DNA from: Akkermansia sp.
GTDB taxonomy: Bacteria > Verrucomicrobiota > Verrucomicrobiia > Verrucomicrobiales > Akkermansiaceae
Direction of reading: 5' to 3'
Assembly (NCBI GenBank): GCA_017472085.1
Contig: JAFUQZ010000084.1
Span: 424-64,423 of the forward strand
DNA length: 64,000 nucleotides
A model generated the notes under the pieces. It saw only the letters and a program-made list of their open reading frames with translations. It made no database searches and was not told the origin of the DNA. The position numbers and the translations under genes were made by a program. Below are positions 3,944-37,237 of the stretch, one piece after another (position 1 is the stretch's first letter; every line of letters starts with the position of its first letter).

Positions 3944-6076
3944 ATGTATCCACGTTGTTCTTTAATCACCATTGTTCTGATGGCCGGGGCTGCGGCGGCG
4001 CAGATGCCCGGTGGAATGGCCTCTCACGTGCAGGTGGAAAAGGCCGTGCGCGGTAAAGACTGTATCGTACGCAAGAGTATAGCCCATGCGGAGCCTATCA
4101 GCACGGTGAACATCTCTGCGGCGGTGTCCGGGTTTCTGCACGAAGTCCGTTTCAAGGAAGGCAGTATGGTAAACGCAGGGGAGGTGCTCATGGTAATTGA
4201 CCCCATCCGTTATCAGGCTGCCGAGCAGAAAGCGCGTGCAGCCGTTTCTCAGCTGGAGTCGCAGATTGTCTATGCCGGTAACCGTTATGCGCGCCTTTCC
4301 CGCCTGGCAGAACAGCAGGCAGCCTCCAAAGAGGATATGGAAAGTGCGCTGGCCACGCTGGAGGAGCTGAAAGCCAAACGCGCCGCCGCTCAGGCCAATC
4401 TGGTGAAAGCTCAGAAGGATTTGTCTGACTGCACCATCAAGGCAGAGATTACCGGGCGCATCGGGAGACTCAATTTTTCACAGGGCAACTATGTGAACGT
4501 GGGAGAGAAATTGGCCACCATCACCCAGATAGACCCCATTTACATGCGATTCCCGCTCAGCCAGACCGATGTGAACAGCATTTTCGGCGGCCCCGAGAAG
4601 ATTGCGGACGCTTCTAAAGTGAATATCATCACGGCCAACGGCGTGCGTTATCCCTCTGCGGGAAAGGTGGATATCGTGGACAACCAGCTGACCGGCGATA
4701 CGGACAGTTACACGCTCTGGGCCAAATTTGACAATGCTGAGCACGTGCTGACCCCGCGCGGCATTGCCGCGCTCCATATTGCACTCGCTGATACACAGGA
4801 AGTGACGATGGTGCCGCTCACCGCCGTGCAGCACGATGCCGACGGTGCCTTTGTGCACACGGTGGATGAGAACAATGTGGTGGCACGGCGTAATGTGGTG
4901 GCCGGCCCCATTCAGGGCCGCTTGCAATCCATTTACGAGGGGCTGGAACCCGGCGAAACCGTCATCATCGACGGCGCTCACAAGACCCGTATCGGCGGGA
5001 GCGTCATTCCCGTGGAAAACACTCCGCCTGCGGAGAAAACAGCATCCTCTGAGGTGTCGGAGCCCGAGGCGGTAGTACCGGTTAAAACCGATATCGTGAG
5101 TGAGACAGAAGACCCCACCGTCATCACCTGCCAGGGGGCGCGCATCGAGGCTATCAACACCGTTTCCCTGCGTCCGCTGGTGCAGGGATTGCTGGAGGAA
5201 CCCCAGTTCAAGGAAGGCGATATGGTGAAGAAGGGGGATGTGCTCTTCCGCATCGACCCCGTTCGCTATCAGGCCGTGGTGGATGCCCGTAAATCTGAAA
5301 TTGCACAGTTGGATGTGAGAATCCGGGACGCGCTGGTGAAGCTGAACCGCCAGAAGTACCTGTTGGAGCGCAATGCCACCAGCAAGGATGAGGTGGAGAG
5401 TGCTCAGGCCACGTATGATGAACTCACCGCTGCCCGCCTGGCGGCTGTGGCAGATTTCACCATTGCCCTGGATGACCTTTCCCGCTGCACCATTCATTCC
5501 GGTATGAATGCCCGCATCGGCCGAGTGAACTTCTCCGGCGGTAACTACATCACCGATACCAAGTCTCCGCTGGCCACGCTGGTGCAAATCAGCCCCATCT
5601 ACGTGCGCTTTTCCATGAGCGAGAACCGCATCCTCTCCGCTTTCGGCAATGTCTCCAGACTCATGAACGAGGCCGAAATATCGCTTGTGACCGCCTCCGG
5701 CAATGTCTACGGCGAAAAAGGCCATGTGAGCTTCTGTGACAATGTCATCCGCACGGCTACCGATACCCAGAATATCTGGGCTTTCTTCGATAACAAGGAT
5801 GGTCGCCTGAGCCCGGGCGGCGTGGTCACCATCCGCGTGAAGCGGAAACCCGAGTGCAAAGTGCCCTCCGTTCCGGCGGATGCCGTGTTGGTGGATACCT
5901 CCGGGCACTACGTCTATGTGGAGGAAGAAGGCTATGCCCGCCGCCGGCAAGTTCTCTGCGGCGATACCTCGGAGGATGGCCGCATGGCCATTCACTACGG
6001 CCTGACACCCGGGCAGAAAGTCATCGTCAACAACCTGGCCTCCCTGGCGGACGGCACACCTGTGCAACCCGAATAA
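3944..6076 (+). CDS. RND efflux periplasmic adaptor (MFP) made of two complete MFP modules fused in tandem
   Basis: Lipoyl/hairpin motifs occur twice: AEPISTVNISAAVSGFLHEVRFKEGSMVNAGEVLMVIDPIRYQA and IEAINTVSLRPLVQGLLEEPQFKEGDMVKKGDVLFRIDPVRYQA; start re-assigned to MYPRCSL at 3944. Confidence 0.9.
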   Translation: MYPRCSLITIVLMAGAAAAQMPGGMASHVQVEKAVRGKDCIVRKSIAHAEPISTVNISAAVSGFLHEVRFKEGSMVNAGEVLMVIDPIRYQAAEQKARAAVSQLESQIVYAGNRYARLSRLAEQQAASKEDMESALATLEELKAKRAAAQANLVKAQKDLSDCTIKAEITGRIGRLNFSQGNYVNVGEKLATITQIDPIYMRFPLSQTDVNSIFGGPEKIADASKVNIITANGVRYPSAGKVDIVDNQLTGDTDSYTLWAKFDNAEHVLTPRGIAALHIALADTQEVTMVPLTAVQHDADGAFVHTVDENNVVARRNVVAGPIQGRLQSIYEGLEPGETVIIDGAHKTRIGGSVIPVENTPPAEKTASSEVSEPEAVVPVKTDIVSETEDPTVITCQGARIEAINTVSLRPLVQGLLEEPQFKEGDMVKKGDVLFRIDPVRYQAVVDARKSEIAQLDVRIRDALVKLNRQKYLLERNATSKDEVESAQATYDELTAARLAAVADFTIALDDLSRCTIHSGMNARIGRVNFSGGNYITDTKSPLATLVQISPIYVRFSMSENRILSAFGNVSRLMNEAEISLVTASGNVYGEKGHVSFCDNVIRTATDTQNIWAFFDNKDGRLSPGGVVTIRVKRKPECKVPSVPADAVLVDTSGHYVYVEEEGYARRRQVLCGDTSEDGRMAIHYGLTPGQKVIVNNLASLADGTPVQPE

Positions 6077-6088
6077 CCCCTTACGCTC

Positions 6089-9000
6089 ATGTTTTCCGAA
6101 TTTTTCATTCATCGTCCCAAGTTTGCCTTCGTCATTTCCATTGTCATGATGCTGGCAGGGCTCATCTGCCTGTCGCTCATGCCGGTGTCGGAGTACCCGG
6201 AGGTGTCGCCGCCCACGATATCGGTGCGCATGACCTACGCCGGAGCCAGCGCGGAAGAACTGGCACAGGTGGTGGCTGCCCCGGTGGAGGAACAGCTCAT
6301 CGGTATGGATGACCTGGAGTACTTCTACTCCTCCTGTGCCAACAACGGTTCCTACTCGCTCACCCTCATCTTTGCCTCCGGCACGAATGACGACATGGCC
6401 ATGGTGAACGTGTCCAACGCCATCAAAGCCGTGGAATCCAAGTTGCCGGCAGAAATCAAGCAGACCGGCTACAATGTCCGCAAGCGCTCGGGGGATATGC
6501 TCTGCTTTGTCAACTTCAGTTGCGATGAGAACAAGATGAGCATCCTGGAACTCTCCAACTGGGTGCGTATGAACGTGAAAGACCGCGTCTGCCAGGTGGA
6601 CGGCATCTCCAGTGCGGATATCATTCCCAGCCGCAATTACGCCATGCGTGTGTGGATGAACACCACCCGCATGAGTGCGCTCAACATCACCCCTGCCGAT
6701 ATCAAATCCGCCATCAATGAGCAGAATATCCAGGCCGCAGCCGGTTCCGTCGGCTCGGAAGACGAGGAGTCCTATGCCACCTTCAAGGTGACGGCCACCG
6801 GGCGTCTCAAGACCGTGGAAGAGTTCGGCAATATCATCGTCAAGCGCGGGCTGGACGGTCACGTGACCATGCTCAAGGATGTGGCCACCATCGAGCTGGG
6901 GGCGGAGCGCAACTCCGGCTACAATCGCGTGAACGGCAAGGACTCCGTGGGTATGATTGTGTTCCGTAACAATGATGCCAACGCTGTGGCCACCGTGGGT
7001 GCTCTCCAGGAATGCATGAAGGAGATTGAGAAAAACTTCCCGGACGGCATGGACTGGCGCATGGGCTATGACCCCACCCAGGCGATTTCCGCCACGATGG
7101 AGGAAATCGCCATCACGCTGCTGATGGCACTGATTCTGGTGATTCTGGTGACCTACCTCTTCCTCCAGGACTGGCGCGCCACGCTCATCCCCACGCTGGC
7201 CATTCCGGTGTCGCTGCTGGGTGCGTTCATGATTATGTACCCGCTGGGCTACACCATCAACGTGCTGACGATGTTCGGCCTCATTCTGGTGATTGGTTCT
7301 CTGGTGGATGATGCCATTGTGGTGGTGGAAAACGTGATGCGAATCATCCAGGAGGAGAAACTCAGCCCGAAGGAAGCCACCATCAAGAGCATGAAACAGA
7401 TTACCGGCGCCGTGATTGCCACCACCCTGGTCACTCTCGCCGTGTACGTCCCCATTGCTTTCTATGGCGGCATGGTGGGTATCATCTATACGCAGTTCTC
7501 CGTGACGATGTGCGTGGCGCTCGTCATCTCCACCATCAACGCGCTCACGCTTTCCCCGGCACTCTGTGCGCTCATTCTGCGCCCGGCAGATGCGAAGAAG
7601 AGTCGCCTGGAGGTGCTGTTCGCACCGTTCAACTGGGTGATGGAGAAATCCCGCGCCATCTATCTGAAGGGTGCTTCCGTACTGGTGAACAATGCCTGGC
7701 TGACGGTGCTGCTGTTGCTGCTTACCATCGGCGGTAACTATGTGTACTTCGCCGGCGCCCCCGCCTGGTGGAATAACATCTTCCGCGGCGCACCCGCAGC
7801 CGTTGCGGGTAAACCCGGCGCCGCGCAGCAGGATAAGGGGCTGGATTACCTCTCCCTCATTGCACCGAAGATGATTAACAGCTCCTTCATCCCCACGGAG
7901 GATAAAGGCTCGCTCTTCGTGATGGTCAACATGGAGGGTACGGCTACGGCCAAGCAGCGTACCGATAAAGTGATGCGCATGATTGAGGAGAAAGTGAAAA
8001 ATATCCCCGGTATCGAGATGGTGACCACCCAGAGCGGTTACAGCTTTGCTTCCGGTTCCGGCGAGAGCAACGGTATGATGATTGTGCTGCTCAAGCATTG
8101 GAGCGAGCGCACCACGCCGGAGCTGAGCAACACTGCCATTGCGGCCGCCATTAACAAAGCCTGTGCGGATATTCCGCAGGCCTCCATCATGGCCGTGACC
8201 CCGCCCGCCATTCAGGGCCTGGGTATCACCGGCGGTATTTCGCTGGTGCTGACGGTTTCCGGCGATGATGCCACCCCGCTGCTGCTGGGCAACATGGTCA
8301 AGGAGATACAAGCCCGCCTCCAGGCGCGCACGGATCTGGTGACAATGGTACGCAGTGAGTACAACGCCGAAAACCCGCAGGTGTTCCTGGAAGTCAATCG
8401 AGAGAAAGCCCAGTCGCTCAATGTCCCGGTCAACACCATTTTCAGCACCCTGCAGAGCGTGATGGCTTCGTCCTATGTGAACGATTTCACTCTCAATGGT
8501 TTCAATTTCAAGGTGATGATTCAGGGTAACACCCGTGATCGCCGCACGGCAGATGACATCCTCAACCAGATGGTGCGTAACACCAAGGGAGAGATGGTGC
8601 CGCTGTCTGCCCTCTGCACGCTGTCTTACCGCATGGGTCCCGCCTACTATGAGCGCTTCAACCAGTACATGAGCGCCAACATCACCGTGCAGAGCAAGCC
8701 CGGTACCGGCTCCGGGCAGGTCATGAAGTATATCGAGGACACCATCGCTCAGATTAACGAGGAGGAGCGCAAGGCCGGACGCGACCTCATCTGGGGTGCG
8801 GAGTGGAAAGACCTTTCCTACCAGGAGCGTAAGAACGAGGGTAAGCTTGCCCCGCTCATTGCCATGGCCGTCATCTTCGCCTACCTCTTCCTGGTGGCTC
8901 AGTATGAGAGCTGGACCACACCGGTGCCCGTGATGCTCTCCGTGACCGTGGCCACCATGGGGGCGCTCATGGGTGCCCAGCTCTTCGGGCTCTCCATGTC

Positions 9001-16720: not shown

Positions 16721-18175
16721 ATGGCAGAAATTCAGCTTGGACTTACATTTGACGACGTGCTCCTGCTTCCTTGCCTGAGCACGATTCTTCCCGGCGAGGC
16801 CGACCCCTGTTCTCAGCTTTGTGAGGGCTTTCCTCTTCGCCTGCCCATTCTTTCCGCACCCATGGACACGGTGACGGAGGTGGATATGGCCATAGCCATG
16901 GCTCGTGAAGGCGGCCTTGGCGTCATTCACCGCAACAACCGCATCGATGACCAGGCCGCCATGGTGGCCAAGGTGAAGCGCTTTGAAAACGCCGTCATCA
17001 CCAAGCCCCTCACCGTGACGAGCGACATGAGTCTCAGCCGTGTGAAGGGTATCATGCTTGACCATGGTTTCTCCGGCCTGCCCGTGGTGGCAGAGGGGAA
17101 TCTGCTGGTGGGTATCATCACCGGCCGTGATATGCGCGTGGTGGATGGTCATGACCTGGACAAACTGACGGTGGCAGATGTGATGACCCCCATGAGCCGC
17201 CTCATCACCGGTACTCCCTCCACCACTCAGGAGGAAGCCCGCAAGATTCTCTTTTCCAACCGCATCGAGAAGCTCCCCCTTATCGATGATAACGGCTGCC
17301 TGGTCGGTCTGATTACCGATACGGACATCCGCAAGCGCGAGGCTTTCCAGGAATCCACGAAGGATGACATGGGCCGTCTGCGCTGCGGTGCTGCCGTGGG
17401 CCCCGGTCCGGAGTTCATGGCTCGCGCACAGGCGGTGGTGGATGCCGGGGCAGATGCCCTGTTCATTGATGCCGCTACCGGTCACACCAGCCGTGTGCTG
17501 CATGTGATTGAGAAGCTCCGTGAGCTGGGCAAGCCCGTGGTGGCCGGTAACGTGGTCACGCAGGACGGTGCCCGCGACCTCATTTCTGCCGGCGCCAGCG
17601 CCATCAAGGTGGGCGTGGGCCCCGGTTCCATCTGCACCACCCGCATCATCTCCGGTGTGGGTATGCCCCAGTTCTCCGCCATCCAGGAGGTGGCCAAGGT
17701 GGCCCGCCCCGCCGGGGTCACCGTGATTGCCGACGGCGGTATCCGCTATTCCGGCGATGCCGTGAAGGCTCTTGCCGCCGGTGCAGACCTCATCATGATG
17801 GGTGGCATGCTGGCCGGTTGTGAGGAAAGCCCCGGTGCCGTGGTGCACTATCAGGGTCGCAACTTCAAGACCTACCGCGGCATGGGTTCTCTGGGCGCCA
17901 TGCGTGCCGGCTCCGGCGACCGCTACGGTCAGAACGGCAGCGGCAAGCTTGTGGCCGAGGGTGTGGAAGCCCGTGTGCCCTACAAGGGTATGCTGGCCGA
18001 TGTTATCTTCCAGCTGGTGGGAGGTCTGCGCTCCGGCATGGGCTATCTGGGTGCCAAGAGCCTCCAGGAACTCCGCGACCACGCCCGCTTCGTCCGCATC
18101 ACCGCCGGTGGCCTTCAGGAAAGCCACCCGCACGATGTCACCATCACCCAGGATCCGGGTAACTACACCCGCTAA
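16721..18175 (+). CDS. guaB: IMP dehydrogenase with CBS subdomain
   Basis: [19 protein letters not shown], catalytic [32 protein letters not shown]. Confidence 0.98.
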
Positions 18176-18204
18176 TCCTCCGGCGATACTTATTTCTCAT
18201 CCCC

Positions 18205-18241
18205 GGGCTGCCGTTCCGCAAGGTTTCGGCAGCCCTTTTTT
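18205..18241 (+). terminator. Rho-independent terminator of guaB
   Basis: GGGCTGCCG / CGGCAGCCC stem followed by T6. Confidence 0.85.
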
Positions 18242-18274
18242 CGTGGCCCGAAAGCGCAGAATTGTGCAAATTAA

Positions 18275-18401
18275 GGAAAATATAATGGAATATAGTGAAA
18301 ATCTCTTATATGGCGCTATATTGTATTATATCTTTCTATAGAAGTGAGAAAATGGGCGAAAAACAGGCCGTATAAGGAAAATCTCATATACGGCCTTATA
18401 T
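18275..18401. repeat. Left phased TATA array (module plus partial second module) at the 3' end of the AAA+ gene; includes AGGCCGTATA/TATACGGCCT inverted repeat (possible terminator)
   Basis: TATA at 18281, 18291, 18307, 18317, 18327, 18337, 18371, 18387, 18397. Confidence 0.85.
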
Positions 18402-19577
18402 TTACTGACAGGTGTTTTTCTCTGTCCTGTTAAGGAACTCTCCGAATAAGGGGACACTGTAGTCGATGAAACCGTGTCGTGGGCTGAATATCATGCCTTT
18501 GCGGATGAGACTGGCACGTATGGGGGTGGCTGCAGACGGCTTCATGTTCAGTTTTTCTGCCACATCGGCACTTTTACAGGGTGTTGCTCCTGTTGCCATG
18601 GCGTGCAGGAAGCGTTTTTCGCCATCGGTCAGTCGGTCGTATCGAACACGGAAGAAGTTGGTGTCCAGTCGTGCGGTGACGAGTGTTTCCGCTGCTTGAA
18701 CATCGTCTCTGGTCATGTAGGGGTGAGTGGCGACTTTCCAGACCTGATATCCCCATTCCTGCAGGAAATAGGGGAATCCTCGCGTGTGCTGATAAATAGC
18801 ATCCAGCGCATCCTGACTGAAGTCTGCATGTTCCAGGGAGACCGGTTCCTGCAGGGCGCTATCGCATTCTTCTTTGGTGAGTTGACCGATGATGGGATAT
18901 GAGAAGAGCCGCTCGGCGTATGATTTGGCCTCTCCTGCCAGTCGGGGCAGGGTGGGAAGTCCGGCCGCGATAAGGACGAAAGGTGCTTGCTTCTGTTGCA
19001 ATTTGTGCATGGCCATAATCAGACCGGCGAGTTCTTCCTGTCTCAACAGCTGTATCTCGTCAATGAGTAAGGCTACTCCACTATTTTTTGCGCGTGCCGC
19101 TTCGGCCACGGCCAGAAATAAATCCGGCAGGTCAATTTCAGGGTTACCGGAGTCTGCTATGCCGGGCAACGGATCTAATTCTACCCCGAATTCGCCGTAA
19201 TTCAGCTTGAGCGAACCAATGAAATTCCGAAGAATCATTAATCCTCGCTTAATCATTTCTTTGCTGCCTTCGATACGATCCAGCTCAAAGAACAGGTTAC
19301 GCAGAGCCGGTATCAGCTTGTGGCCCATCGTTTGACTTTCCGTTACTTCAAAGAAAATGGTCTTGTAACCCTGCGATTGGGCTTCCTGTTCAATCGCATT
19401 CAGAAGAACGGTTTTCCCTACACCTCTCAGCCCCGTGAGCAGCATGCTCTTTTCCGGCTTTTTGCGAAGCGTTCGCCCCAGAAGAATGCGCGCTTCTTCC
19501 AGTACTGCTTCTCGTCCAACCAGTTCGTGAGGTGGATATCCGGCTCCGGGGGTGAAGGGGTTTTTAATGGGGTCCAT
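18402..19577 (-). CDS. Stand-alone AAA+ ATPase with C-terminal winged helix (archaeal-ATPase/STAND-Orc1-like architecture)
   Basis: NPFTPGAG start, Walker A LTGLRGVGKT, Walker B ALLIDEIQ, AERLF, C-terminal RYDRLTDGEKRFL..SADVAEKLNM..RASLIRKGMIF wHTH; GC visibly lower than guaB. Confidence 0.88.
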   Translation of the reverse strand: MDPIKNPFTPGAGYPPHELVGREAVLEEARILLGRTLRKKPEKSMLLTGLRGVGKTVLLNAIEQEAQSQGYKTIFFEVTESQTMGHKLIPALRNLFFELDRIEGSKEMIKRGLMILRNFIGSLKLNYGEFGVELDPLPGIADSGNPEIDLPDLFLAVAEAARAKNSGVALLIDEIQLLRQEELAGLIMAMHKLQQKQAPFVLIAAGLPTLPRLAGEAKSYAERLFSYPIIGQLTKEECDSALQEPVSLEHADFSQDALDAIYQHTRGFPYFLQEWGYQVWKVATHPYMTRDDVQAAETLVTARLDTNFFRVRYDRLTDGEKRFLHAMATGATPCKSADVAEKLNMKPSAATPIRASLIRKGMIFSPRHGFIDYSVPLFGEFLNRTEKNTCQ

Positions 19578-19597
19578 GGCTTTTATGTAAAAAATAA

Positions 19598-19754
19598 CGA
19601 AATATAAAGAAAGTCAATAAAATTGTCTTATATAGTGCTATATTTCGTTATATTTAGTTATAGAAACCCAAAAAAGAGAGAAATGAGGAAAATATAAGGC
19701 TATATAAAGAAAATGCTATATATGGTCTTATATTTGCTTATATTTTTCTATAGG
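19598..19754. repeat. Right phased TATA arrays (two modules) upstream of the AAA+ gene
   Basis: TATA at 19603, 19629, 19639, 19649, 19659 and 19693, 19703, 19719, 19729, 19739, 19749. Confidence 0.85.
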
Positions 19755-19954
19755 TGTGCAATACGGGGGGATAAAACAGTGCTGCGGTACATCAGTTGCA
19801 TTCCTCCGCGGTATCATTCCGTATGTGCAAACCAAGGTCCTCAGAACAGACTGGGCGGCCGGAGAATGCGGGCGGAACCATTGTGGTCGTTCTGCCGGAT
19901 TCTGCCGACCGCTGTTTTGCCGCCACGGTTTTGCGTGAGCGGGGGTGGGGATAT

Positions 19955-33194: not shown

Positions 33195-34439
33195 TTAGCG
33201 GTCGCATTCGCCCTGCACGAAGTCGAAGGAACCCAGAATGGCGGGTACGTCGCTGACCAGGTGACCCGGCAGCAGCTCCGGCAGGATGGAAAGGGTGCAG
33301 TAGGAGGGGCTGCGCATCTTCAGGCGGTTGGCAATGCCGCCGCCCTTGGAATCCAGGAAGAAGCCCAGCTCGCCCTTCGGGTTTTCGGCGGCGAAGTAGA
33401 CCTGGCCGACCGGGGCGTTCACGCATTCGGTGCTGACCATGAACTGGCGGATGAGTTCCTCCATGCCTTCCATGGCGGCCTGCTTGTTCGGCAGGATACC
33501 CTTGTCGTTCTGCACCCAGATGGGACCGCCGGGCATCTTTGCCAGCACCTGGCGGATGATACGGACGGACTGGCGGATTTCTTCCATACGCACCTGGAAG
33601 CGGGCGTAGCAGTCACCTTCCTCTGCCACGGGGACGTCGAATTCGTACTGCTCGTAGCCCAGATAGGGATTGGTCTTGCGGAGATCGCGGTTCACACCGC
33701 TGGCGCGCAGGTTGTTGCCGGTCATGCCGTTCTGCAGGGCCATCTCCCTGGTGATGACACCCACGCCGACCAGACGGTCGATGAATACCTTGTTGTGCAG
33801 AAGCAGTTTCTCCATTTCATCCACGGTGCGCAGGGCGCTGTCGCAGAAAGCAAGTATCTGTTTCTCAATACCCTTCGGCAAGTCGCGGGTCATGCCGCCG
33901 ATGCGGGTGTAGCTGGAGGTGAAACGGGCGCCGCAAATCTGTTCGTAGATGTTGTGCACGCGCTCCTTTTCCTCAAAGGCATACAGGAATGCAGTCATGG
34001 CACCGGTGTCCATGGCATACACACCCGTCCCCAGGAAGCAGGAGGAGATGCGGGACAGCTCGCAGCACAGCACGCGGATGGCCTGGCCGCGCTCCGGCAG
34101 CTCCCAGCCCATCAGCTTCTCCACCGCGCAGGCGTAGGCGATGTTGTTGCTCATCGGGGCCAGGTAGTCCATGCGATCCGTGTAGGTCACAAACTGGTTG
34201 TAGTGGCAGTTCTCGGCAATCTTTTCCATGCCTCGGTGCAGGTAGCCAATCACGGGGTCGCAAGATACAATCTCCTCACCGTCAATGACCAGCTTCAGGC
34301 GCAGCACACCGTGCGTTGCAGGGTGCGAGGGACCCATGTTCAGGGTCACCAGCTCGCCCTGGTCCTCGGCGTCGTTTTTCAGGTAATCTACCGCAGCGGT
34401 TGATGTATCAGGCACTTGTAAAATCTTTGTTGTCTTCAT
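33195..34439 (-). CDS. nuoD: NADH-quinone oxidoreductase subunit D
   Basis: LNMGPSHPATHGVLRL, IGYLHRGMEK, DRMDY, ENPKGELG, GSFDFVQGECDR. Confidence 0.98.
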   Translation of the reverse strand: MKTTKILQVPDTSTAAVDYLKNDAEDQGELVTLNMGPSHPATHGVLRLKLVIDGEEIVSCDPVIGYLHRGMEKIAENCHYNQFVTYTDRMDYLAPMSNNIAYACAVEKLMGWELPERGQAIRVLCCELSRISSCFLGTGVYAMDTGAMTAFLYAFEEKERVHNIYEQICGARFTSSYTRIGGMTRDLPKGIEKQILAFCDSALRTVDEMEKLLLHNKVFIDRLVGVGVITREMALQNGMTGNNLRASGVNRDLRKTNPYLGYEQYEFDVPVAEEGDCYARFQVRMEEIRQSVRIIRQVLAKMPGGPIWVQNDKGILPNKQAAMEGMEELIRQFMVSTECVNAPVGQVYFAAENPKGELGFFLDSKGGGIANRLKMRSPSYCTLSILPELLPGHLVSDVPAILGSFDFVQGECDR

Positions 34440-34665
34440 AACCGGTTATATGCAGGGCCACCTCCGGCCACTATCGTGCGGAGATATTAAACACCTTTCA
34501 CTTGTAAAGTTCAAGCCTAAAGTGCTGCCCGACAGCGGAAAATCAGCCGGATGATAACCTGTTCTATGGTTAGTTTTATCAAACTTTTAGAACTATTCAA
34601 AAGTTAAATAGGGCTGCGGAAGCTCCGTCGGTGACATTTCAGGAACAGTAAGCCACGATTGCCGC

Positions 34666-34694
34666 TTGCAGGGAGGCAGGGCAGAGGGTATGAT
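34666..34694 (+). promoter_or_regulatory. Promoter TTGCAG-17-TATGAT, 6 nt before ATG 34701
   Basis: Counted directly from the sequence. Confidence 0.75.
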
Positions 34695-34700
34695 ACAGGT

Positions 34701-35168
34701 ATGAGTTCGAAAGTAACGGCTGAACAGTTGGATATGGTGCGCGGATGGGCATCCGAGGGAATTGACCTCAACGGCATCCAGAAGAAGCTGGTGTCGGAGT
34801 GCGGGGTGCATCTCACCTACATGGATGTCCGCTTCCTGCTGCTGGACAATGGTATCGAAATTGCCACCGCTCCGGCACCGGTGAAAGCTCCTGAAAAACC
34901 GGTCGCACCGAAACCGGCTGAGCCTGCTCCCGCAGAGACTGCCGATGCGGCAGCAGCTCCCGGTGCGCCGAAAGTGACCCTGGATGAGCTGCAGCTCCCC
35001 GGCGCTCTGATTTCCGGCAAGGTAGAGTTCCCCTCCGGCACACGCGGTGCCTGGATGATTGACCAGATGGGCCGTTTCGCCTGGAATGACCTGAGCGGCA
35101 CGCCCACACAGGAAGAGCTGCAGGCATTCCAATTTGAGCTGACGCAGCTGCTCAGCCGCGGACGCTGA
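34701..35168 (+). CDS. Hypothetical protein (N-terminal helical domain, Pro/Ala linker, C-terminal alpha/beta domain)
   Basis: Host-like codon usage; start MSSKVTAEQ behind a clear promoter. Confidence 0.8.
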   Translation: MSSKVTAEQLDMVRGWASEGIDLNGIQKKLVSECGVHLTYMDVRFLLLDNGIEIATAPAPVKAPEKPVAPKPAEPAPAETADAAAAPGAPKVTLDELQLPGALISGKVEFPSGTRGAWMIDQMGRFAWNDLSGTPTQEELQAFQFELTQLLSRGR

Positions 35169-35457
35169 GTGGAGAAAACAATCTCCATTCCTGCCAACGG
35201 CAGGAATTCTTCACCGTGCGCGACAGCGCGTTCTTCGCCCAAATGCCGCAGGCATTTTTCTTCACCACAGGGCGCAAGCTCTGTTCTTCATCTTGCATTA
35301 AAAACTCGCTTGCGCTCGTGGTGAAGAACGCCCTGCCGGGCGTGGTGAAGAATCGGCTTCGCCGATGGTGAAGAAAAGTGCCCTGCCGGGCACTTGGGTG
35401 AAGAACTCAGCGCGCTGCGCTGAGTGGAGAAAACAAGTGCGAGAGAAAACAAGTGCG
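35169..35457. repeat. Symmetric mosaic array of 9-bp linkers (TTCTTCACC x4, then GGTGAAGAA x4) separating variable hairpins (REP/BIME-like)
   Basis: Linkers at 35207, 35231, 35258, 35284 (reverse) and 35320, 35344, 35367, 35397 (forward); GCTGAGTGGAGAAAACA direct repeat at 35164 and 35419. Confidence 0.9.
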
Positions 35458-35477
35458 GTGCTTCTTTCTGCCCGGAT

Positions 35478-35999
35478 TTATCGGAAATCGCGATGGCCGA
35501 TGCTTTTTCGGAAATGATATTCGGTCGGGTCATCTTTATATTTTTTGATGACACCGGTGACTTTTCCGGTTGAATCGTGTTTGAAGGTGAGGGTATATTG
35601 ATTATCCTGAGAGAGCAGGGTGTTGTCTCTCAGTTCCAGGTTCAGTGCACACTCCATTTCAGGGTCTTCCAGGTAGTGGTCCTGAAAGATTTCGATGACG
35701 GTGACGCCGTAGTGGTATTTCCCTGCGTATTGCGGGAGGAGAATCATGAGATGGGGGGAGCCGCTGTCGAGCCCATTGTCGGGTCGTTCGTAATCGTAGC
35801 AGTACACTCCCTGCAATTGATAGAGTTTATCCCACCCCGGGGCGGGCTGTTCCCTCCGCTTGGCTTCGCAGACCTGTTGCGACTGTTCATGCGTCAGTCT
35901 GAGCGCCGGTTCTGCTGCGGGTGTCCGGCAGCCCGTGATGAGCCACCCGACTGTGAGCAGAATCACCGGGGCGAGGAGTGTGGACGGAGTATGCATCAT
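35478..35999 (-). CDS. Putative lipoprotein
   Basis: Signal peptide ending LITG-C (lipobox-like); lower GC. Confidence 0.65.
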   Translation of the reverse strand: MMHTPSTLLAPVILLTVGWLITGCRTPAAEPALRLTHEQSQQVCEAKRREQPAPGWDKLYQLQGVYCYDYERPDNGLDSGSPHLMILLPQYAGKYHYGVTVIEIFQDHYLEDPEMECALNLELRDNTLLSQDNQYTLTFKHDSTGKVTGVIKKYKDDPTEYHFRKSIGHRDFR

Positions 36000-36208
36000 A
36001 TCTACTCAATATAATCCACATTCGCTGTCAATCCGCAACTTTTTTTTCTGAAAAAAAGATGTGCCGGGAGTCAGTATGTGAAGGCAGGCCTGTGTTTCCC
36101 GGAAGCGATAGACGGGGAACAAAACAATGGCAGAAAATGCGTAAAAAGATTCCGGCGGCGGGAAATATGCTTGAGTTCGGGTGTTATAGGTGTTAGCATA
36201 GGGACAAC

Positions 36209-37237
36209 ATGATACCCAAATTTTTATTTTTTATTTTCCCGTTGCTGGCAGTGCTGGTCGGGATTCCGGCCGGTGGGTTGGAGCTGGAGGTTCTTTCCCC
36301 GACGATGACTCGTCAGGATGCCGATGACTATCTGACCAAGGATTATGTCTATCGCGTGCTGGAAGATGGTTCGGTGCGCCGCACCTGGAGTCCGGATGCG
36401 AACAGCCGCCTGATGCTGGATTTTGACCCGAAGAAAGGCGCGTTGCTGAGTATGTTCATGGAATACCGCAAACCGATTGCGGAGGAGGAGGCCATGAAGA
36501 CTCTGCAGGTGATGACCGGCAAGGATAAGGTTTCCTGGTCCAGGATGCCGGAGGAAAAGATGGAAAAAATCGGTGTGTCGGGAGCCCGTGCCATGAAAGT
36601 GGGCAAGGGGTTTGCTTTTTATGAGACAACGGCTTCCGGCAAGTGCCGCAGAATCACCGTGTATCCGCATGCTCCCAAGGAAAGTCGCCTCCTGTTGCGC
36701 GAAATTGCGGTCAGTGAGGCCGGACAGAGTGGGTTCGATAGTTCAAAGTCGGTGGCGGATTGTCGCCAGCTGATGGCTGAGGAGGAAAAAATCTTCTTTA
36801 CCCCGAATAAGGCCGAGCTGGCCAAGGCGGCAGCGGCAGCCCGCAAGCGCCAGGCCGAATCCGGGGAGGAATCGACTTCCATAGCGGTGAATACCGTGCA
36901 GGAGGAAGAGCCGGAGGTGAAAGAGGAGCCTGTTGCGCAGGAGCAGGAGGCTGCAACGGAGGAGAAGCCTGTGGCCACGACCAAGAAGAAAAAGAAGACG
37001 GCACGCGAGAAGTCTTTCATGGAGAAACTGGGGTTGGGCGACATGACGGAAGGCGAGATGATGACCTATGGCGCCGGGGTGCTGGTGTTGCTTATCATCA
37101 TCGTGGTGGCTGTGCGCAGCAAAATGAACAGTGATATCAGAAAGAACCGAGAGAAGAATATCCGGCTGGGAACGGCTACCTCTGCCGATCAGTTGGGCGC
37201 GCCGCGTCGCAGACCGCAGACGCATCGCAGAAAATAA
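36209..37237 (+). CDS. Exported protein with charged linker, C-terminal TM helix and basic tail
   Basis: Signal peptide MIPKFLFFIFPLLAVLVG; TM YGAGVLVLLIIIVVAV; promoter TTGAGT-17-TAGCAT at 36171-36199, 9 nt upstream. Confidence 0.75.
   Translation: MIPKFLFFIFPLLAVLVGIPAGGLELEVLSPTMTRQDADDYLTKDYVYRVLEDGSVRRTWSPDANSRLMLDFDPKKGALLSMFMEYRKPIAEEEAMKTLQVMTGKDKVSWSRMPEEKMEKIGVSGARAMKVGKGFAFYETTASGKCRRITVYPHAPKESRLLLREIAVSEAGQSGFDSSKSVADCRQLMAEEEKIFFTPNKAELAKAAAAARKRQAESGEESTSIAVNTVQEEEPEVKEEPVAQEQEAATEEKPVATTKKKKKTAREKSFMEKLGLGDMTEGEMMTYGAGVLVLLIIIVVAVRSKMNSDIRKNREKNIRLGTATSADQLGAPRRRPQTHRRK

Follow-up and report, generated by a model that had tools for sequence, protein, structure and literature searches.

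What kind of element packs eight different small palindromes and a recurring linker into the space between two genes is the question raised by a locus in a 64,000-nucleotide stretch of Akkermansia DNA (the window), which represents contig C47 of G000, a metagenome-assembled genome of 2.45 Mb with 56% GC, 96 contigs and 93% completeness. The element, which we call the fishbone, spans window positions 35182-35430 (about 250 bases), has no gene and is built of four TTCTTCACC-type linkers, four GGTGAAGAA linkers and eight differing small hairpins. We find that it is best explained as a non-autonomous, gene-less copy, resembling a miniature inverted-repeat transposable element (MITE), that arose by internal deletion within a family of small mosaic cassettes of Akkermansia, and we put the probability of this explanation, including its proposed mechanism, at roughly 0.6. 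We are quite confident about what the fishbone is, namely a gene-less family member carrying a new linker variant of the design known from the Gut-1 motif. How it works, through protein-linker binding, action on DNA and help from recombinases, is a much more tentative proposal that we infer from sequence.

The left half (35187..35292, minus strand) consists of four hairpins (35187-35207, 35218-35231, 35241-35257 and 35267-35284), each followed by a TTCTTCACC-type linker (TTCTTCACC at 35207, TTCTTCGCC at 35231, TTCTTCACC at 35258 and TTCTTCATC at 35284), and reads on the minus strand as hairpins tagged with GGTGAAGAA. The right half (35320..35425, plus strand), which is the half most often found alone, has four GGTGAAGAA linkers (35320, 35344, 35367 and 35397), each followed by a hairpin (35328-35343, 35352-35366, 35376-35395 and 35405-35425). 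The ends are formed by TCTCCA (35182..35187, plus strand) and its inverted partner TGGAGA (35425..35430, plus strand), with the CTCCA terminal motif being common to all full copies; TGGAGAA, a single base away from the core TGAAGAA of the linkers, possibly represents a degenerate fifth one. All linkers and outer motifs were found where a preliminary description of this DNA had placed them, and all eight spacers are palindromic, the second with a palindrome of just 4 bp and the fourth with one G·T pair. A repeat finder also picked out the linker family and each of the palindromes. Exact GGTGAAGAA occurs nine times in the window, six of them inside the element, against an expectation of 0.4, and none of 100 shuffles reached nine.

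The fishbone is not alone in its genome. G000 holds three full and at least nine partial copies of the family: according to BLAST and linker clustering, full copies are found on C4 and C78 (96% identical), partial copies on C20, C43, C56 (two), C50 (two), C22 and C35, and diverged cousins on C30, C48 and C43. The left-half hairpins recur in the same order on C4, C78 and C56 and on contig C9 of a second genome, G004, and both the hairpins and their order are constant in every G000 copy; the apparently different palindromes are therefore modules of one mosaic unit. Searching the genome and 41 related genomes for units of linker plus palindrome thus revealed a multicopy, dispersed, extragenic family, with BLAST matches in 10 of 25 genomes of the genus and in none of the 16 outside it. 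The arrays of G006, G017, G021, G004 (C21) and G010 keep (G)GTGAAGAA with entirely different hairpins, G004, G006, G017 and G021 contain triple-linker arrays whose hairpins are unrelated, and arrays in other species are either one-directional tandems or mirrored. Neither 50,697 phage nor 72,556 plasmid records gave a blastn match to the element, and a phage or plasmid origin was rejected on this basis. A collection-wide scan for GGTGAAGAA-N10-26-GGTGAAGAA returned mostly chance matches in coding DNA of unrelated phyla, its useful yield being a single contig, L084.

That contig, a public "Akkermansia sp." record that is syntenic with C50 at about 79% nucleotide identity, carries a GGTGAAGAA-type element with a gene of 114 amino acids exactly at the position of the window's 27-nt centre. 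The gene is preceded by the promoter TTGTCA-17-TATCAT, 6 nt before the ATG, and has a CTCGCT..CGCTCG module on both sides, inverted. Its product scores 72.6 bits against PF05635 (23S rRNA intervening-sequence protein) and 84.2 bits against TIGR02436 (four helix bundle protein). The order in a full cassette is CTCCA, about four units of hairpin plus linker, a sigma70-like promoter whose ATG appears to be leaderless, a gene of about 115 amino acids, the mirror array and TGGAG. The centre of the window copy (35293..35319, plus strand; TTGCATTAAAAACTCGCTTGCGCTCGT) occupies the position that the four-helix-bundle gene has in full-size relatives and contains TTGCAT, an A-tract and the conserved non-hairpin module CTCGCTTGCGCTCG, with no open reading frame (ORF) in its 27 nt. 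Read by eye, TTGCAT may be the remnant of the -35 box of the cassette promoter, and the window copy is a gene-less derivative in which nothing but this -35-like motif and the right-hand centre module remains.

A four-helix-bundle gene lies between mirror arrays at 12 loci or more. These include L084, C7 (between TTTCAC and GTGAAAG arrays), C72 (between TTTTCA and TGAAAAC arrays), L186 and L187 (linker GTGAAAT), L215, L216 and L222 (linkers GACGATATC / AACGATAT), L218 (linker GGGAACTT), L213 and L146, and AGGTAAT is also among the linkers of relatives with the same layout. A third four-helix-bundle gene of G000, on C41, is placed between heptamer repeats. Protein identity is 94% within the GTGAAAT type, 71-73% within CGATAT and 65% within GGTGAAGAA, and at most 45% between distant types, showing at the sequence level that linker type tracks protein clade. 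The closest solved structure to the cassette protein is PDB 2RLD, with five chains; the literature ties the PF05635/TIGR02436 family to Avd of diversity-generating retroelements (DGRs) and to pentamers of four-helix bundles, and a relative of the cassette protein is reported to form a five-bundle assembly. No published link of Gut-1 or of hairpin arrays to PF05635 genes was found in the literature. Some four-helix-bundle genes are flanked by mirrored short repeats that lack hairpins (C41:8246-8548, L202 in G060 and L221 in G037), these being TCGTAAA/TCGTAAT, CAGTRRT heptamers or CTTCATCCTT. Two such genomes are from outside the genus, and one such gene sits between a pair of genes for purine biosynthesis; the rule of mirror arrays may thus hold outside Akkermansia and for spacers other than hairpins.

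The preliminary description had taken the fishbone for an undescribed family, which is not wholly the case, since the same design is catalogued as the Gut-1 motif (RF01706). Gut-1 was reported in 2010 from human-gut metagenomes only, as a single-orientation RNA without a gene partner, and was rated a likely RNA on covariation with no function assigned (Weinberg et al. 2010, Genome Biol 11:R31, PMC2864571). The RF01706 consensus has three variable hairpins separated by GUGAAAU, and the fishbone shows the same covarying, short, variable hairpins on a constant, purine-rich GUGAA-core linker, here GGUGAAGAA, likewise in gut bacteria. The two differ in the linker, in the hairpins and in the four or five units per half of the fishbone; in G000, both have four-helix-bundle genes and the 3' ends of recombinase genes as neighbours, and both occur as mirrored pairs. 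Three Gut-1 loci in G000 score 51.5-55.6 bits, above the gathering score of 50 bits, and C7 has subthreshold Gut-1 matches on both strands directly after an integrase stop codon. Gut-1 was found in 18 of 37 genomes of the genus (up to 22 copies), often as adjacent plus- and minus-strand pairs, and in 0 of 24 elsewhere in the order. Further lineages have GTGAAAG and other linkers, and GTGAA[AG] arrays number 17 in G000 compared to 1 in a reversed-sequence control. A cmscan of window positions 34000-36500 at E <= 10 gave no match to Gut-1 and, among the other Rfam families, solely a chance match to KDPG-aldolase (E = 7). The fishbone is a sister of Gut-1 with a new linker variant, and the Rfam motif is one half-array of a sister lineage with the linker GUGAAAU. 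Directly after the four-helix-bundle gene on C7 is a nine-linker tandem of GTGAAAG units (35660-35826), in which GGGGC-ATGC-GCCCC hairpins alternate with CTGTCGCGAGAAAGCGGCGC; arrays can grow by unit duplication.

Comparison of orthologous intergenic regions confirmed that the window copy behaves as an insertion. The element sits right behind the stop codon TGA (35166-35168) of the upstream gene, between two convergent genes. In the nearest species (G004, 86% identity), the upstream gene ends in the same ...CTCAGCCGCGGACGCTGAG and is followed by unrelated sequence, with the orthologous site reading ...GACGCTGAGG without the element. None of nine orthologous sites in relatives (G004 and eight more) contains it, and because of this the window copy is read as inserted. 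The element is bracketed by a direct repeat, CGCTGAGTGGAGAAAACAA (35163..35181 and 35418..35436, both on the plus strand, repeat finder), which is present and overlaps the upstream stop as described earlier but is 19 bp long and not 17. Its first 7 nt are the native 3' coding end of the upstream gene, including the stop, since these and the stop are also found in the element-free G004.

That stems keep pairing while their sequence changes had been proposed from the window alone, and it holds across copies and species. For 17 right halves from eight species, 90.6% of the alignment cells are paired, compared to 76.7% in shuffles (none of 500 reached the observed value) and 16-56% in slid-alignment controls, and compensatory double changes occur in 10 of 15 pairs. 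Among six copies that are 91-98% identical, variation affects 71% of loop columns, 3% of stem columns, 12% of linker columns and 24% of columns in unstructured sequence (loops versus stems, p = 1e-7; loops versus unstructured, p = 0.0065). With stems and linkers below the local background and loops above it, we read this pattern as purifying selection on the pairing and the linker combined with an extra mutability of exposed loops. The C-GNA-G loops that had been singled out are not a conserved feature, because loops are the part that varies most.

Folding predictions for the single strand gave -140.2 kcal/mol (z = -9.4) as RNA and -84.6 kcal/mol (z = -9.2) as DNA, with both local hairpins and linker-linker "spine" pairs present in the predicted folds. 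The stability of such a predicted fold is a consequence of the inverted-repeat design and not evidence of function. The suggestion that the linkers pair into a central spine survives for the predicted single strand, but the spine is not a general feature of the family, because many members are one-directional arrays without a complementary half, a gene of about 450 nt separates the two halves in full-size elements, and the linker variants of the left and right halves do not compensate one another.

Whether the constraint acts on RNA or on DNA is central to the first of the alternatives, which we consider unlikely. Avd works together with a reverse transcriptase and structured RNA, and the cassettes could specify a structured non-coding RNA of the Gut-1 type: half-arrays would be transcribed, GGUGAAGAA would offer single-stranded protein sites between hairpins, the product would be, for instance, a sponge or a stabilizer in the 3' untranslated region (UTR) to which the four-helix-bundle protein or some other RNA-binding protein attaches, and the mirror half would serve the opposite strand. 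The strong covariation fits this alternative, as do the opinion of Gut-1's discoverers that it is likely an RNA (PMC2864571), the presence of a GTGAA-sense array in the 3' UTR of the gene in 4 of 5 simple GTGAA-family cassettes, and the literature on the homologue Avd as an essential accessory protein of DGR retrohoming. However, G·U pairs are nearly absent. Of 582 stem pairs in 101 different units, just 14 deviate from Watson-Crick pairing, with G·T accounting for no more than 3 of these. The GTGAA strand has 11 A·C against 3 G·T, which on a recount around four-helix-bundle genes became 18 against 11 and is not significant; counted relative to these genes, G·T and A·C are balanced, with no significant strand asymmetry of mismatches. 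Such scarcity without strand bias is unusual for an RNA under selection. The arrays also occur in both orientations relative to flanking genes, with one locus opposite in two species, no promoter or terminator frames a half-array, and the element behaves as an insertion, while hairpins extruded from DNA would give equal covariation. The scarce G·U, the mirror symmetry, the independence of orientation and the insertional behaviour favour a constraint on both DNA strands over one on a single-stranded RNA, and a role as a substrate for single-stranded DNA recombination is possible.

The mechanism we propose for the gene-less cassette copy starts from the protein. Avd is a pentamer that binds nucleic acid, and the 8-9-nt linkers would be sequence-specific sites for the (pentameric) four-helix-bundle protein of the cassette, with the hairpins as compact spacers that set successive linkers side by side. 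The element would act on DNA as the mirror-image ends of a selfish cassette, its hairpins extruding from the DNA. Spread would depend on host functions, for which the most likely providers are the tyrosine recombinases nearby that are specific to Akkermansia. The window copy itself is probably carried along passively and at most blocks or stabilizes the convergent transcripts. A bolder extension, which may well prove wrong, is that the fishbone, Gut-1 and their relatives are the cis-acting ends of an unrecognised class of selfish cassettes whose sole gene encodes an Avd-like four-helix-bundle protein. The pentamer would read lineage-specific linkers of 7-9 nt, one per subunit, on single-stranded or extruded DNA (or RNA), the hairpins would fold out of the way as spacers, and the resulting "gear wheel" of protein and nucleic acid would bring in tyrosine recombinases of the host, or its enzymes of replication and repair, by which the cassette is copied or moved. 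The hypervariable loops would be scars of repeated hairpin extrusion and processing.

Several observations weigh against the mobile-cassette explanation. None of the cassettes has a gene for a transposase or for another enzyme known to confer mobility, and no consistent target-site duplication was found, the 19-bp repeat being present at the window copy and not at other copies. Contigs of the same strain from other samples have an identical filled window site, and no ongoing mobility was seen. G000 has no intact gene of the GGTGAAGAA lineage, just a truncated 3' end on C50, and of its intact four-helix-bundle genes, two belong to other linker types while the third has heptamer repeats on its flanks. 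Co-inheritance on one element could by itself produce the co-variation of linker and protein, and Gut-1's discoverers judged their motif to be an RNA on covariation (PMC2864571). When 30 genes of the recombinase family were sampled, just 2 or 3 had an array downstream, and at the corresponding locus in G019 (C73) an 83%-identical recombinase stands without a fishbone. An association of integrase and array as a general rule was rejected on the count of 2 or 3 in 30.

In five fishbone copies, a gap of 7-16 nt (0 to 3 codons) separates the element from the stop codon of an upstream gene for one type of tyrosine recombinase (C-terminus ...RYTMPTLSSVAKRYW), a multicopy gene inside which contigs break; the full gene of 324 amino acids was recovered from another sample, beside an MmeI-family restriction-modification (RM) gene. 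A second recombinase type (C-terminus ...CRLGERCA) has Gut-1 arrays downstream in G000 and G019, and a third, in G022, has GACGATATC arrays downstream. The recombinase family was found in 23 of 23 genomes of the genus with 1-20 copies each and in 0 of 14 from other families of the order (E <= 1e-20); about 20 of its genes are in G000 (C4, C7, C10, C19, C22, C23, C35, C36, C38, C43, C44, C46, C53, C65, C78, C82 and C92). At the G019 locus, about 150 nt of unrelated spacer stands in the place of the fishbone, which is a replacement and not a simple empty site, and the association with recombinases may come down to insertion hot spots that both share. Between a CxxC gene and the recombinase, the fishbone lies in opposite orientations in G000 (C4:14933-15182) and G004 (C9:81835-82081), with different junctions of 5-7 nt, resulting either from inversion or from independent insertion at one hot spot. 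We regard the link as real and not obligatory, and it could come from recruitment, hitch-hiking or shared hot spots.

A second alternative, which we hold to be quite improbable, sees in the fishbone the attachment region, or arm region, of an element that carries an integrase. The recombinase would use GGTGAAGAA as an arm-type site, four per inverted arm around a core, and solo copies would be cargo-less mini-elements that can be mobilized in cis, with a duplicated 19-bp core. The five copies 7-16 nt after the stop of one recombinase type and the contig breaks in its gene speak for this, as does the fact that each recombinase type has its own linker: type A with GGTGAAGAA (G000, G004 and G019), type B with GTGAAAT (G000 and G019) and the third with GACGATATC (G022). 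The size of about 250 bp and the 19-bp direct repeat would fit the product of an att site, and duplicate 3' ends after some recombinase genes are a sign of integration. Most genes of the recombinase family lack an array, however, the G019 recombinase noted above has no fishbone at the same locus, and gene-bearing cassettes such as that on C72 are found far from any recombinase. Palindromic spacers have no role in known arm-site regions, and the centre modules of L084 are inverted, while att cores would be direct.

Still less probable is that the fishbone is a bidirectional transcription barrier, in which each hairpin followed by UUCUUCACC would form a weak intrinsic terminator and the two halves would face the two convergent genes. 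The position between convergent genes, directly after a stop codon, suits this function, one unit (35267-35284 followed by TCTTCATCTT) passes a terminator scan, and the strand that reads TTCAC has a weak G·T excess (11 versus 3, recounted as 18 versus 11), significant in neither count. Only 1 of 8 units passes that scan, though, a terminator does not account for the constancy of CACC, the linker portion that lacks U, the linkers of other lineages (GACGATATC and GGGAACTT) are not U-rich, and nine orthologous sites do without the element. Any barrier could be a side effect and need not be why the family exists. There is next to no chance that the fishbone is a REP/BIME/REPIN element mobilized by a RAYT (HUH Y1) transposase, as the preliminary description had considered from its extragenic, palindromic, multicopy and modular mosaic nature with a tagged head sequence, since its eight palindromes are different and not near-identical, its tag is 9 nt, its arrays flank four-helix-bundle genes and not RAYT, and a search for Y1 transposase genes (PF01797) gave 0 matches in the 93% complete G000 while detecting them in 6 of 14 control genomes.

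Placing the gene-less cassette copy among known systems, the best structural analogue of the whole cassette is the ORF-bearing intervening sequence (IVS) of 23S rRNA, a selfish element of about 430 nt with terminal inverted repeats and a PF05635 ORF whose mobility has been unexplained since 1993 (PMC4990558), with examples in Leptospira (Ralph & McClelland 1993) and as "S23p" in Coxiella burnetii (Warrier et al. 2016, PMC4990558). This layout, with inverted-repeat ends around a PF05635 ORF, is exactly that of the full-size fishbone relatives. In contrast to an IVS, the fishbone lies between two protein-coding genes and not in 23S rRNA, its arms are arrays of tagged hairpins and not one continuous stem, and the window copy has no ORF. 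Fishbone copies on L123 (G019:C20) and L132 (G004:C15) abut the 5S rRNA terminator that closes an rRNA operon, a neighbourhood worth recording given that the PF05635 family was first found inside 23S rRNA intervening sequences.

Like MITEs and the Correia, NEMIS, RUP and pneumococcal BOX elements, the fishbone is short and non-coding with terminal inverted repeats, many copies, a variable number of modules and insertions relative to relatives; it has CTCCA...TGGAG ends with mirrored arrays, at least 12 copies, and is absent from nine orthologous sites. Unlike them, it has no known parent insertion sequence bearing a transposase, the parent-like cassettes encoding the four-helix-bundle protein only, as well as an inconsistent target duplication and a build of linker plus hairpin. 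With the REP/BIME/REPIN elements of E. coli and Pseudomonas it has in common that it is an extragenic, multicopy mosaic of palindromes with a short conserved tag, often between convergent genes, but there is no RAYT in G000, the fishbone palindromes vary by unit and the partner gene encodes a four-helix-bundle protein. Integron attC sites and the attP(+) of CTX phage likewise combine short conserved cores with a variable, imperfectly palindromic body read by structure and a tyrosine recombinase nearby. The fishbone differs from attC in having no cassette ORFs between its units; the attC cores R''/R' (RYYYAAC / GTTRRRY) are not found in the element sequence, and the neighbouring recombinase scored 18.8 bits against the integron-integrase model TIGR02249, for which the cut-off is 265. 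Avd is homologous to the four-helix-bundle protein of full cassettes, yet no reverse transcriptase, template repeat or variable repeat of a DGR was found near the cassettes. Known Akkermansia invertons, which have the inverted repeat CGGATT..AATCCG, differ from the fishbone motif and were rejected as candidates.

The association gives a testable partner to two orphans. Gut-1 has been without a host, a function or a gene context since 2010, and PF05635 proteins are widespread, structurally solved and related to Avd, with no known role outside DGRs. In Akkermansia, Gut-1-like arrays and a four-helix-bundle gene form one unit, and gene-less copies have spread through the genome. The cassette offers a model for the origin of rRNA intervening sequences and, if the bolder extension is true, would also explain how the ORF-bearing ones move. 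Both these repeats and the enlarged recombinase family fragment Akkermansia assemblies, and they mark hot spots of plasticity in the genome of a species under development as a probiotic.

Some further features were recorded at the window locus and around the recombinases. The upstream flanking gene (34701..35168, plus strand; 155 amino acids from the ATG) is conserved throughout the genus, and the convergent downstream gene (35478..35999, minus strand; 173 amino acids) is not syntenic in any relative; neither has a Pfam match. Outside the right end is a tandem duplication of GAGAAAACAAGTGCG (35427..35457, plus strand; two copies, 16-nt period), and over 33 nt (35442-35475) the right flank resembles that of the C35 copy (85%; E = 0.008, marginal), a stretch that may be part of a preferred target or of a longer unit. 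At the C4 locus, contigs from other samples have the same orientation throughout, with one loop difference. The contig with the full recombinase gene (L190 3373-4464; ena:ERZ28019339:k141_861828) covers this same locus, and the recombinase there is divergent from the MmeI-family (type IIL) RM gene, with which it may form a phase-variable or mobile RM module. On C65 (~6810-7000), C53 (~17180-17340, minus strand), C82 (~4290-4460, minus strand) and L232, a diverged second copy of the last ~30 codons of the recombinase (EMGHRSTDLLR..YLNLP..) follows right after the stop and looks like the gene's displaced 3' end, left behind by an element that integrated into the recombinase gene and supplied a replacement end of its own. 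The two fishbone halves on C50 enclose a long non-coding stretch (18200-19880) built of other recurring modules, such as GGAGCCCCGCGAGGGGTGACAGAAGGCG...CTTTCTGTCACCCC and GAATGGCAGCCCGGCGGGCTGCGAAAATGGCGCCCGG, which are also found at C22:200-560 and C43:6100-6400 and on C30, C48, L124 and L126; they match nothing in Rfam and look like nested repeats.

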